A stretch of 64,000 nt of DNA from Escherichia coli (GTDB lineage Bacteria > Pseudomonadota > Gammaproteobacteria > Enterobacterales > Enterobacteriaceae), in assembly GCF_003334315.1 (NCBI RefSeq), contig NZ_QOWR01000003.1; one strand, 5' to 3'. Under the pieces are notes generated by a model, which was given only the letters and a program-made list of their open reading frames with translations, searched no databases and had not been told where the DNA came from. A program made the translations under genes and the position numbers. Each line of letters opens with the position of its first letter. Position 1 is the first letter of the stretch. Of the stretch, positions 29,996 to 34,561 are shown piece by piece.

Positions 29996-32350
29996 CTATT
30001 TTGCAGTCACAACCTGCATACCAGACGGTTCATTTTGCAGCGCCAGAGTCAGAACTTCCTCAATGCGCTTCACAGGATGAATGTCCAGATCGGCAATTAC
30101 GTTGTCAGGAATCTCTTCCAGATCGCGTTTATTTTCGAACGGAATTAGCACTGTTTTAATCCCGCCGCGATGCGCTGCCAGGAGTTTTTCTTTCAAACCA
30201 CCGATCGGCAGTACCTGACCACGCAGAGTGATCTCACCGGTCATTGCCACATCGGCACGAACCGGGTTACCGGTCAGGCAAGAAACCAGCGCGGTGCACA
30301 TAGCAATACCGGCACTCGGACCATCTTTCGGCGTCGCACCTTCCGGTACGTGGACGTGGATGTCACGTTTTTCGTAAAAATCAGGGTTGATCCCCAGTTT
30401 TTCCGCACGCGCACGAACCACCGTTAACGCCGCCTGAATGGACTCCTGCATCACTTCGCCGAGCGAACCGGTATAGGTCAGTTTGCCTTTACCCGGAACA
30501 CATGCGGTTTCAATGGTCAGCAAGTCACCGCCCACTTCCGTCCACGCCAGACCGGTTACCTGACCGACACGGTTTTCGTTATCAGCGCGACCATAGTCGA
30601 AACGCTGAACACCGAGGTAGTCATGCAGGTTATCGCCGTTAATTTCGATATGTTTTAATGACTTATCGAGCAGTAACTGCTTAACCGCTTTGCGGCACAG
30701 TTTGGAGATTTCACGCTCCAGACCACGCACGCCCGCCTCACGGGTGTAGTAACGAATAATGCCGATAATGGCGCTATCGTCGACGGTCAGCTCACCTTTT
30801 TTCAGTGCATTACGTTCAATCTGCTTCGGCAGCAGGTGACGTTTGGCGATGTTCAGTTTTTCATCTTCGGTATAACCGGAGAGGCGAATCACTTCCATAC
30901 GATCCAGCAGCGGTGCCGGAATGTTCATGGAGTTCGACGTCGCGACAAACATCACGTCGCTGAGATCGTAATCCACTTCCAGGTAGTGGTCGCTGAACGC
31001 TACGTTCTGCTCTGGATCCAGCACTTCAAGCAGTGCGGAGGCCGGATCGCCACGCATGTCAGAAGACATTTTGTCGATCTCATCGAGCAGGAACAGTGGG
31101 TTTTTCACGCCCACTTTCGCCATTTTCTGGATCAGTTTACCCGGCATAGAACCGATGTAAGTACGGCGGTGACCACGGATTTCCGCTTCATCACGCACGC
31201 CGCCCAGCGCCATACGGACATATTTACGCCCGGTGGCTTTGGCAATGGACTGACCAAGAGAGGTTTTACCTACCCCCGGCGGCCCTACCAGGCAGAGGAT
31301 CGGTCCCTTGATTTTGTTGACACGGCTTTGAACCGCAAGATACTCAAGGATTCGATCTTTCACGCGCTCCAGACCATAATGGTCGGTATCAAGGATTTCC
31401 TGCGCCTGACGCAGGTCTTTTTTGACCTTGCTGCGCGCATTCCACGGTACCTGTACCATCCAGTCGATATAACCACGCACTACGGTCGCTTCTGCCGACA
31501 TCGGAGACATCATTTTCAGCTTCTGCAACTCTGCTTCCGCTTTCTCTTTTGCCTCTTTCGGCATCTTCGCCGCGTCGATTTTGCGCTTCAGGGCTTCGTT
31601 TTCGTCCGGCGCGTCGTCCATTTCACCGAGTTCTTTCTGAATAGCTTTCATTTGCTCGTTCAGATAGTACTCACGCTGGGATTTCTCCATCTGCTTTTTA
31701 ACGCGGTTGCGAATGCGTTTCTCAACCTGCAGCAGATCGATTTCCGATTCCATCATTGCCATCAGATATTCCAGACGTTCGTTAACGTCGGACATCTCCA
31801 GAACGGACTGTTTGTCAGCCAGTTTCAGCGGCATATGTGCAGCAATGGTATCCGCCAGACGCGCCGGATCGTCGATGCTATTCAGCGACGTCAGCACTTC
31901 TGGTGGGATTTTTTTGTTCAGCTTGATGTAGCCTTCGAACTGGCTGATTGCAGTACGCACCAGCACTTCCTGTTCCCGCTCATCAATGGTCGGCGACTCC
32001 AGATACTCCGCCTTCGCAGAAAAGTGTTCGCCATTGTCAGAGAGCGCAGAAATACGCGCGCGCTGTAACCCCTCGACCAGCACTTTGACGGTGCCGTCAG
32101 GCAGCTTCAGCATCTGCAATATAGAGGCCACGGTCCCGACGGTGAAAAGATCGTTTACACCCGGCTCATCCGTTGAAGCTTCTTTCTGCGCGACCAGCAT
32201 AATTTTTTTATCATGGTCCATCGCCGCTTCCAGACAACGGATAGATTTTTCCCGCCCGACAAATAAGGGGATGACCATGTGCGGATAAACCACCACATCG
32301 CGCAGCGGCAATACGGGGATTTCAATGCGTTCAGAACGCTCAGGATTCAT
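29996..32350 (-). CDS. lon: ATP-dependent protease Lon
   Basis: ATG at 32350 ([33 protein letters not shown]) inside ORF-track entry 29996..32395; 784 aa; Walker [10 protein letters not shown]; catalytic Ser in PKDGPSAG. Confidence 0.97.
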
Positions 32351-32430
32351 AGAGCTCTCTCTTAGTTTAATTTCCGCCAGGTAATCAGATGACACGATTG
32401 TGCTTCACGCCATCTATTAACATGTACGTC

Positions 32431-32462
32431 AGTATATGGGGATGTTTCCCCCACATTCAACG
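32431..32462 (-). promoter_or_regulatory. Heat-shock (sigma32-type) promoter of lon
   Basis: Minus strand reads cgTTGAAtgtgggggaaacatCCCCATATAct, matching the sigma32 -35 (TTGAA) and -10 (CCCCATnT) consensus, about 80 nt upstream of the lon ATG. Confidence 0.6.
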
Positions 32463-32537
32463 CCGAGAATAGAGGAAAAATTAAAGGGGAGATAAAATCC
32501 CCCCTTTTTGGTTAACTAATTGTATGGGAATGGTTAA

Positions 32538-33812
32538 TTATTCACCAGATGCCTGTTGCGCTTCCGGCTTGCCATAAATCAGCAACGGTTTGCTTTGACC
32601 ATCAATTACCGACTCGTCTATAACCACTTTTTCGACATCTTCCATGGACGGCAGATCGTACATGGTATCGAGCAGTGCGGCTTCTACGATGGAACGCAGG
32701 CCACGGGCACCGGTTTTACGCGCCATCGCTTTCTTAGCGATAGCATCCAGCGCCTCGTCACGGAATTCCAGATCCACGCCTTCCAGATTAAACAGCGCCT
32801 GATACTGCTTGGTCAGGGCGTTTTTCGGCTCTTTGAGGATCTGAATCAGAGCTTCTTCGCTCAGTTCATTCAACGTTGCGACAACCGGCAGACGACCAAT
32901 GAACTCAGGGATCAGACCAAACTTGATTAGATCTTCCGGTTCAACCTGCGCCAGCAGCTCGCCTTCGCTTGCTTTGTCGGACTTCGCTTTTACCGTCGCG
33001 CCAAAACCAATGCCGGAGCCGGTTTCTACACGGTGGGAAATCACTTTATCCAGACCGGCAAACGCACCGCCACAAATAAACAGGATCTTAGAGGTATCAA
33101 CCTGCAAGAATTCCTGCTGCGGATGTTTACGCCCACCTTGCGGTGGAACAGCAGCTACCGTACCTTCGATCAGTTTCAACAGTGCCTGCTGTACGCCTTC
33201 ACCGGAAACGTCTCGGGTAATGGACGGGTTGTCTGACTTACGAGAAATCTTGTCGATTTCATCGATGTAGACAATACCACGCTGTGCTTTCTGGACATCG
33301 TAGTCGCATTTCTGCAACAGCTTCTGAATGATGTTTTCAACGTCTTCACCCACATAACCGGCTTCGGTCAGTGTAGTCGCGTCGGCCATGGTGAACGGAA
33401 CATCCAGCAGGCGCGCCAGCGTTTCAGCCAGCAGCGTTTTACCGGAACCGGTCGGACCGATCAGCAGAATGTTACTTTTGCCCAACTCGACGCCATTGCT
33501 GGTATCGCCGTTGCGCAGACGTTTGTAATGGTTGTATACCGCGACCGCCAGCACTTTTTTCGCCTGTTCCTGGCCGATAACGTAATCGTCCAGGTGGTTG
33601 CGAATTTCATGCGGCGTCGGTAGCGCACTGCGTTCACGATGCGGTGCAACTTCTTTAATCTCTTCGCGAATGATGTCGTTACATAAATCAACACATTCGT
33701 CGCAGATATACACGGATGGACCGGCAATCAGCTTGCGCACTTCATGCTGGCTTTTGCCGCAAAAAGAGCAATACAGCAATTTGCCTGAGCCATCTTTGCG
33801 TTTATCTGTCAT
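32538..33812 (-). CDS. clpX: ATP-dependent Clp protease ATPase subunit ClpX
   Basis: ORF track 32538..33812, 424 aa, zinc-finger [27 protein letters not shown], Walker A GPTGSGKT. Confidence 0.97.
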
Positions 33813-33937: not shown

Positions 33938-34561
33938 TCAATTACGATGGGTCAGAATCGAATCGACCAGACCGTATTCCACCGCTTCAGGGGCGGAAAG
34001 GAAGCGATCGCGCTCGGTATCACGTTCAATCTGTTCTAATGATTGACCCGTATGAAGCGCCATAAGTTCATTCATGCGCCCTTTAACTTTCAGAATTTCA
34101 CGGGCATGAATTTCGATATCGGTCGCCTGGCCCTGGTAGCCGCCCAACGGTTGGTGAATCATCACGCGCGAATTCGGCAGGCAAAAACGTTTACCTTTTG
34201 CCCCTGCGGTCAGCAAGAAAGCGCCCATCGAGGCCGCCTGGCCCATACAGATGGTGCTGACATCAGGCTTGATAAACTGCATGGTGTCATAGATAGACAT
34301 CCCGGCAGTGATCACCCCGCCTGGGGAGTTAATGTACAGATAGATATCTTTTTCTGGGTTTTCCGCTTCCAGGAACAGCATCTGCGCCACAATCAGGTTA
34401 GCCATGTGGTCTTCAACCTGGCCAGTCAGAAAAATGACGCGTTCCTTAAGTAGACGAGAATAGATATCAAAAGAGCGCTCACCGCGTGAGGTCTGTTCAA
34501 TGACCATCGGCACCAGCGCCATATGGGGTGCAAAGTTATCTCGTTCGCCGCTGTATGACAT
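33938..34561 (-). CDS. clpP: ATP-dependent Clp protease proteolytic subunit ClpP
   Basis: ORF track 33938..34561, 207 aa, active-site region [11 protein letters not shown]. Confidence 0.97.

Follow-up and report, generated by a model that had tools for sequence, protein, structure and literature searches.

The inverted repeat in the Escherichia coli lon promoter: very probably an IS186 target made of the sigma-32 -10 element and an Escherichia-specific G-run

Introduction

The lon promoter of Escherichia coli carries an inverted repeat between its recognition hexamers, and the question that this raises is whether the repeat constitutes a second protein-binding site superimposed on a heat-shock promoter and, if so, for which protein. 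An initial annotation of the locus, which was made from the sequence alone, had described sigma-32-like elements flanking a near-palindromic spacer and had proposed that an additional factor might bind there. We investigated this proposal in a stretch of 64,000 nucleotides of E. coli DNA (hereafter the window, in whose coordinates all positions are given), combining promoter, RNA-structure and orthologue comparisons with a survey of 5,426 complete E. coli genomes. The promoter is the known lon promoter, and we hold with high confidence that the dyad in it is no separate operator and is instead the target site of the insertion sequence IS186, composed of the sigma-32 -10 element together with a run of G specific to Escherichia.

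The lon locus and its promoter

The minus strand of the window encodes, in order, tig, clpP (33938-34561), clpX (32538-33812), lon (ATG at 32350) and hupB. The 206-bp clpX-lon intergenic region is matched in 5,425 of the 5,426 complete E. coli genomes, with at least 99% identity in 5,412 records, and its promoter region is that of MG1655 except for a single base in the 5′ UTR. This base, at 32398 (+26 from the transcription start site, TSS), is an A in the window and a G in MG1655, BL21(DE3) and FAHZZU7007; since the best matches among the 5,426 genomes are all 99.5% identical over the intergenic region, the A seems to be rare or absent in that set. The following features make up the gene and its promoter:

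29996..32350, minus strand: lon coding sequence, which E. coli genome annotations give as lon / endopeptidase La.
32351..32423, minus strand: lon 5′ UTR of 73 nt, with the mapped start at A 32423.
32431..32436, minus strand: sigma-70-type -10 hexamer TATACT, called by the promoter scan, overlapping the sigma-32 -10 and lying at -13..-8 relative to the mapped TSS.
32434..32441, minus strand: sigma-32 -10 element CCCCATAT, whose first two C form the "extended -10".
32455..32460, minus strand: -35 element TTGAAT, from the promoter scan and orthologue conservation.

A program-made list of open reading frames runs lon back to an in-frame GTG at 32395, i.e., through a segment (32351-32395, minus strand) of the mapped 5′ UTR. 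The true start of lon is the ATG at 32350, which has an AGAGAG purine run ahead of it.

Comparison with the mapped lon TSS, which had been put forward as a check on the initial annotation, places the start of transcription at 32423, consistent with a lon promoter: the published start at position 458039 of NC_000913.2, with a 73-nt UTR and the upstream sequence ...CCCCATATACTGACGTACA, corresponds to this base (Kim et al. 2012, supplement). The TSS of Klebsiella pneumoniae lon falls on the equivalent base. Sigma-32 promoters are characterized by CTTGAA at -35 and by CCCC at -15..-12 followed by ATNT, with K130 of sigma-32 contacting the CC at -15/-14 that makes up the "extended -10" (PMC10216364). 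In the lon promoter, TTGAAT agrees with the (C)TTGAA of this -35 consensus (PMC10216364), CCCCATAT conforms to CCCCATNT inclusive of the CC of the "extended -10", and the 14 nt separating TTGAA from CCCC lie within the 13-15 nt typical of sigma-32 promoters. The same region is called as sigma-70-like by the promoter scan, in the form TTGAAT-18-TATACT with an 18-bp spacer. As expected of a sigma-32 promoter, the TSS is just downstream of the -10, 8 nt past TATACT and 11 nt past the final T of CCCCATAT; we infer that these distances agree slightly better with use of the sigma-70 hexamer during non-stress growth than with the sigma-32 -10. The TSS data set presumably stems from non-stress conditions, and heat- and rpoH-dependent transcription of lon has reportedly been described by Goff et al. 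in 1984 and Chin et al. in 1988. We take the promoter to be read by the sigma-32 RNA polymerase via TTGAA-N14-CCCCATAT and probably also by sigma-70 via the overlapping hexamers, TTGAAT-N18-TATACT.

To place these elements in a comparative framework, species-representative genomes were scanned with the first 150 residues of Lon, yielding 80 gammaproteobacterial lon loci that range from Escherichia to Vibrio, Shewanella, Pseudoalteromonas and Colwellia. The pattern TTGA-N(13-15)-CCC[C/A]AT.T is found upstream of lon in 73 of the 80 loci, and an exact 27-nt frame with the 14-nt spacing in 66 of them. Across these 66 promoters TTGAA and CCCCATAT reach about 2 bits per column; within the -35, all 66 have TTGA and 64 have A as the fifth base. 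The A28, C29 and T30 that come right after CCCCATAT (window 32431-32433, minus strand) are conserved in 61, 48 and 57 of the 66, respectively, which supports an overlapping sigma-70-type TATACT hexamer. Judging from this alignment, dual recognition of the lon promoter by sigma-32 and sigma-70 may well be ancient, as the conservation suggests. Thus, the assignment of 32431-32462 to the lon heat-shock promoter is borne out by identity with MG1655, by a spacing like that of dnaK P1, by a TSS 73 nt before the ATG and by conservation in 66-73 of the 80 loci.

Geometry of the dyad and its expectation by chance

Read in the direction of lon, and upstream of its ATG at 32350, the promoter has the order TTGAAT-G-TGGGG-GAAACAT-CCCCA-TATACT (32460..32431, minus strand). 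The string tgggggaaacatcccca at 32453..32437 on this strand, between TTGAAT (32460-32455) and TATACT (32436-32431), is an interrupted inverted repeat with perfect 5-bp arms and a 7-nt center, and not a full palindrome; extended outward as ATgTGGGG/CCCCAtAT, it matches at 7 of 8 positions. Its parts are:

32449..32453, minus strand: left arm of the dyad, TGGGG, which contains the essentially unconserved G-run columns.
32442..32448, minus strand: center of the dyad, GAAACAT (7 nt), which is the core of the IS186 target.
32437..32441, minus strand: right arm of the dyad, CCCCA, inside the sigma-32 -10.

Hence, of the earlier description of a dyad within the spacer between the -35 and -10, the inverted repeat stands, while the flanking elements turn out to be the sigma-70-style hexamers: only between these does the dyad count as spacer, and the sigma-32 register puts its right arm within the -10 itself.

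The dyad is real and statistically unremarkable. The pattern TGGGG-N7-CCCCA occurs once in the 64-kb window against 0.01 occurrences expected, for a pattern that was chosen post hoc; a perfect stem of at least 5 bp arises in about 9% of random 13-nt spacers when TTGAAT and CCCCATAT are held fixed, and such a stem is present in 10 of the 73 orthologous promoters. No other TTGAA...CCCCAT sites were found for comparison in the 64-kb window. As a single-stranded DNA hairpin the dyad folds with -4.9 kcal/mol (z = -1.4), and 14 of 200 shuffled sequences fold as well. These values bear on the idea that the repeat extrudes as a cruciform, or otherwise renders promoter melting sensitive to supercoiling or temperature, and so acts as a DNA-structural thermosensor. 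The GC-rich arms do border the melting region and the single strand can form the hairpin; yet, given the unexceptional z-score, the frequency of equal stems in random spacers and the fact that 5 bp per arm, around a 7-nt loop, is too little for stable cruciform extrusion, we rejected an exceptional hairpin or cruciform. The dyad is, moreover, not conserved in other species whose lon promoters retain the same sigma-32 elements, and we accord a thermosensor hardly any credence.

Conservation of the spacer and the case for an operator

The spacer departs sharply from the elements that bound it: its five G-run columns carry only 0.01-0.12 bits across the 66 promoters, and the full motif, with GGGG at the right distance, is found among the orthologous promoters only in the window and in E. 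albertii. In Citrobacter and Enterobacter the corresponding stretch reads GTGTGGG (GTGTGGGAAACAT), with a single-base difference at 32451 (T vs the G of Escherichia). In Klebsiella, K. pneumoniae included, and Kluyvera the spacer is GTGTGGAATACAT, with the K. pneumoniae TSS at the same place, and genera further off have unrelated spacers. With no G-run in the orthologues, the dyad was also rejected as a general property of sigma-32 promoters. Within E. coli, at least 98.7% of genomes share the same 67-nt sequence surrounding the dyad; this may simply fit the shallow divergence of the species, and it is compatible with selection too.

This pattern of conservation weighs directly on the most obvious interpretation, namely that a host regulator binds the dyad as a dimer, with the dyad as its operator, and thereby adds a further level of control of lon. 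In favor of such a site, the inverted repeat between the hexamers is perfect over 5+5 bp around a 7-bp center, and it is invariant within E. coli. On the other hand, one of its arms is the sigma-32 -10 itself, whereas the other is shared only with E. albertii and differs in Citrobacter, Enterobacter and Klebsiella, which otherwise share the promoter and TSS. A regulator would be expected to keep both half-sites, and as the dyad does not, the operator is unsupported; the comparison of promoters from the 80 gammaproteobacterial lon loci led us to reject a conserved one. Further, a dyad of this size is common enough among random spacers, and our literature searches found no paper describing a host factor that binds it at the lon promoter. 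Hence, we regard an operator as very unlikely, while noting that the G-run may have a modest effect on promoter strength or sigma selectivity. The earlier suggestion of an extra protein-binding site accordingly fails for a host regulator, with the right arm being the -10 and the left arm unconserved, and survives in an unintended form, with the IS186 transposase as the binding protein.

A possible RNA on the opposite strand

A different function for the dyad could be sought in RNA, in light of two features of the strand opposite to lon:

32422..32517, plus strand: match to the Rfam family sraA (RF02029), antisense to the whole lon promoter, with 106.7 bits against a gathering score of 56.
32483..32507, both strands: clpX terminator hairpin, with T-runs on both strands (bidirectional), from the promoter/terminator scan.

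The lon -35 lies 23 nt downstream of the end of the terminator hairpin. One study counts SraA among the sRNAs of E. coli and places it between clpX and lon (PMC3384567); in the consensus structure of the family, the dyad forms stem-loop 1, with UGGGG pairing with CCCCA, and the clpX terminator forms stem-loop 2. Thus, the repeat might act as the 5′ stem-loop of an antisense SraA, where it would stabilize the RNA or contribute to antisense or transcriptional interference with lon. Several observations are in line with this: the model pairs exactly the two arms and matches 17 of 20 Enterobacterales loci; in the predicted fold of the whole 96 nt (z = -2.4), these G and C runs again pair as a hairpin, slightly out of register with the model (GGGGA with UCCCC and a 4-nt loop); on the plus strand, GGGGAGATAAAATCCCC followed by a T-run at 32486-32502 provides an intrinsic terminator; and SraA was detected in all conditions tested (PMC12266141).

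The alignment of 18 Enterobacterales tells against a selected RNA stem. The terminator helix has four pairs with compensatory changes, whereas in stem-loop 1 none of the five pairs shows a two-sided change, pairs vary on one side only, and in 10 of the 18 the two bases of the central pair do not match. The outer helix of the sraA model is invariant across the 18 species, as its strands are complementary to the lon -35 and -10 hexamers; to a large extent, the signal of the family may hence derive from the lon promoter and clpX terminator of the opposite strand. The promoter scan yielded no plus-strand sigma-70-like promoter for SraA at its threshold, with only poor candidates visible by eye, and sraA is unannotated in the RefSeq MG1655 record (NC_000913.3), while ChiX and other sRNAs are annotated there. 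Published ends of the SraA transcript were not found in the literature searched. The EcoCyc coordinates of sraA reportedly start just 3′ of the dyad, which would leave the repeat outside the RNA. One screen, finally, found no phenotype upon SraA over-expression (PMC4606813). For the dyad, an RNA role is conceivable but unsupported; it would depend on where the SraA transcript starts, and we regard it as unlikely. These observations also serve as a caution that much of the signal of the Rfam family may come from the lon promoter and clpX terminator elements.

The dyad as an IS186 target

A protein that does recognize such a sequence is the IS186 transposase: the target motif of IS186 is 5′-GGGG(N6/N7)CCCC-3′, of which the K-12 genome has 19 + 35 = 54 sites, and the element inserts in either orientation on account of the palindromic flanks (PMC5009759). 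The lon promoter holds the only GGGG(N6/N7)CCCC site of the 64-kb window, where it is empty, with the lon promoter intact and no IS186 within the 64 kb. The site and the segment duplicated upon insertion are:

32438..32452, either strand: IS186 target GGGG-GAAACAT-CCCC, from the motif count; it can also be read as GGGG-N6-CCCC from 32451.
32440..32450, either strand: the 11 bp GGGAAACATCC, comprising the core and adjoining G and C, duplicated on both sides of the inserted IS186, from the junctions in two genomes.

We searched all complete E. coli genomes with a junction query consisting of the upstream flank ending in ...GGGGGAAACATCC joined to the IS186 end taken from the MG1655 copy IS186A. 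This recovered IS186 at the lon promoter site in 56 of the 5,426 genomes and in both orientations: 7 genomes match the predicted junction of orientation A at 100%, and 49 that of orientation B (45 full and 4 partial matches). Every B/BL21/REL606 derivative is included, as are K-12 derivatives (two MG1655 lines and JM109), HB101, and the host- or environment-derived isolates FAHZZU7007, H32, 2020N08-094, NDM6, DX6, B-1109 and XH2172. The genomes that lack an intact promoter likewise number 56 (5,426 minus 5,370, or 5,425 minus 5,369), which implies that IS186 accounts for all disruptions. In both BL21(DE3) and the clinical isolate FAHZZU7007, the junctions read TTGAATGTGGGGGAAACATCC on the left and GGGAAACATCCCCATATACTG on the right of a 1339-bp IS186, with an 11-bp duplication, and the transposase gene lies on opposite strands in the two. 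The insertion separates the lon -35 from the -10.

Two side observations concern the assemblies themselves. In BL21(RP), Rosetta2-DE3, BL21-RIPL and BL21(DE3) CP081489, the lon::IS186 junction is matched over only 154 of 201 nt, which suggests that the IS186 copy at the lon promoter of these four B-derived assemblies is rearranged or truncated. The 128.8-kb replicon NZ_CP137697.1 carries the lon-proximal 40 nt of the promoter and, by its adjacent accession number, apparently belongs to the same assembly as the chromosome CP137696, which has lon::IS186; this hints at an IS186-associated rearrangement or at an assembly split at the insertion.

Both the target motif and the hot spot are already in the literature. 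SaiSree et al. are said by later authors to have identified, in 2001, the lon promoter as an IS186 hot spot and the insertion as the reason why E. coli B is deficient in Lon. The hot spot has been described repeatedly since (PMC3045373; PMC4618355; PMC3861542; PMC11251521). Insertions at lon recur spontaneously in either orientation (PMC3045373), strongly reduce Lon protein (PMC4618355) and can be lost by precise excision, with raised IS mobility in the mutant (PMC3861542); the last of these studies places the insertion at clpX +88 / lon -100, which corresponds to window 32450.

Origin of the target and its consequences

The two arms of the dyad thus differ in kind. The right arm, CCCC(A), is the sigma-32 -10 with its extended -10, fixed by recognition by RNA polymerase. 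The left arm is a run of five G in an otherwise free spacer, specific to Escherichia and one base (G 32451) away from the state in Citrobacter and Enterobacter. Together, the arms happen to form a perfect GGGG-N7-CCCC, the preferred target of the IS186 transposase, and it is because of this that IS186 inserts there recurrently and in either orientation. Every sigma-32 promoter provides the CCCC half of an IS186 target; a random spacer completes the motif with a probability of 0.4-0.8%, and in lon, starting from the ancestral-looking GTGTGGG, one T-to-G change would have been enough. Thus, the simplest reading is that the target is an incidental, lineage-specific creation with large phenotypic consequences and not a designed regulatory site, and we infer that no function of the G-run itself is under selection.

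The practical consequences are well established: this 15-bp site explains the absence of Lon in E. coli B and BL21, as well as the frequent emergence of lon-minus mucoid or drug-tolerant mutants in evolution experiments. One might ask if G 32451 is kept by second-order selection as a contingency switch. If this were the case, IS186 insertion would turn Lon off, leading to mucoidy, to the stabilization of substrates of the MarA/SulA type and of transposases, and to more IS movement; precise excision would turn Lon on again, and the lineage would have a fast and reversible route to the lon-minus state under antibiotic, macrophage or proteostasis stress. We consider such a switch improbable relative to the incidental origin of the target.

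Comparison with known systems

The lon promoter shares with the sigma-32 scaffold of dnaK P1 the same spacing, TTGAA-N14-CCCCATAT (PMC10216364). With respect to the E. coli lon (capR) sigma-32 heat-shock promoter, the window is identical to K-12 throughout the promoter, and the 5′ UTR differs by one SNP, the A instead of G at 32398. The CIRCE/HrcA operators offer a superficial likeness, in that there too an inverted repeat is associated with a heat-shock promoter. The CIRCE consensus is TTAGCACTC-N9-GAGTGCTAA, which the lon dyad does not resemble: the latter has arms of only 5 bp, one being the -10, and is unconserved; E. coli is not known to have HrcA. For SraA (psrA/t15; RF02029), the window has a full-length match on the plus strand, in which the dyad corresponds to stem-loop 1 and the clpX terminator to stem-loop 2; here stem-loop 1 is without covariation support, and the invariant parts coincide with elements of the lon promoter. 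Finally, the known IS186 hot spot is a system to which the locus directly conforms: the site, which is unoccupied in the window, fits GGGG(N6/N7)CCCC and is the place where IS186 resides in every genome of the B lineage as well as in several K-12 and clinical ones.
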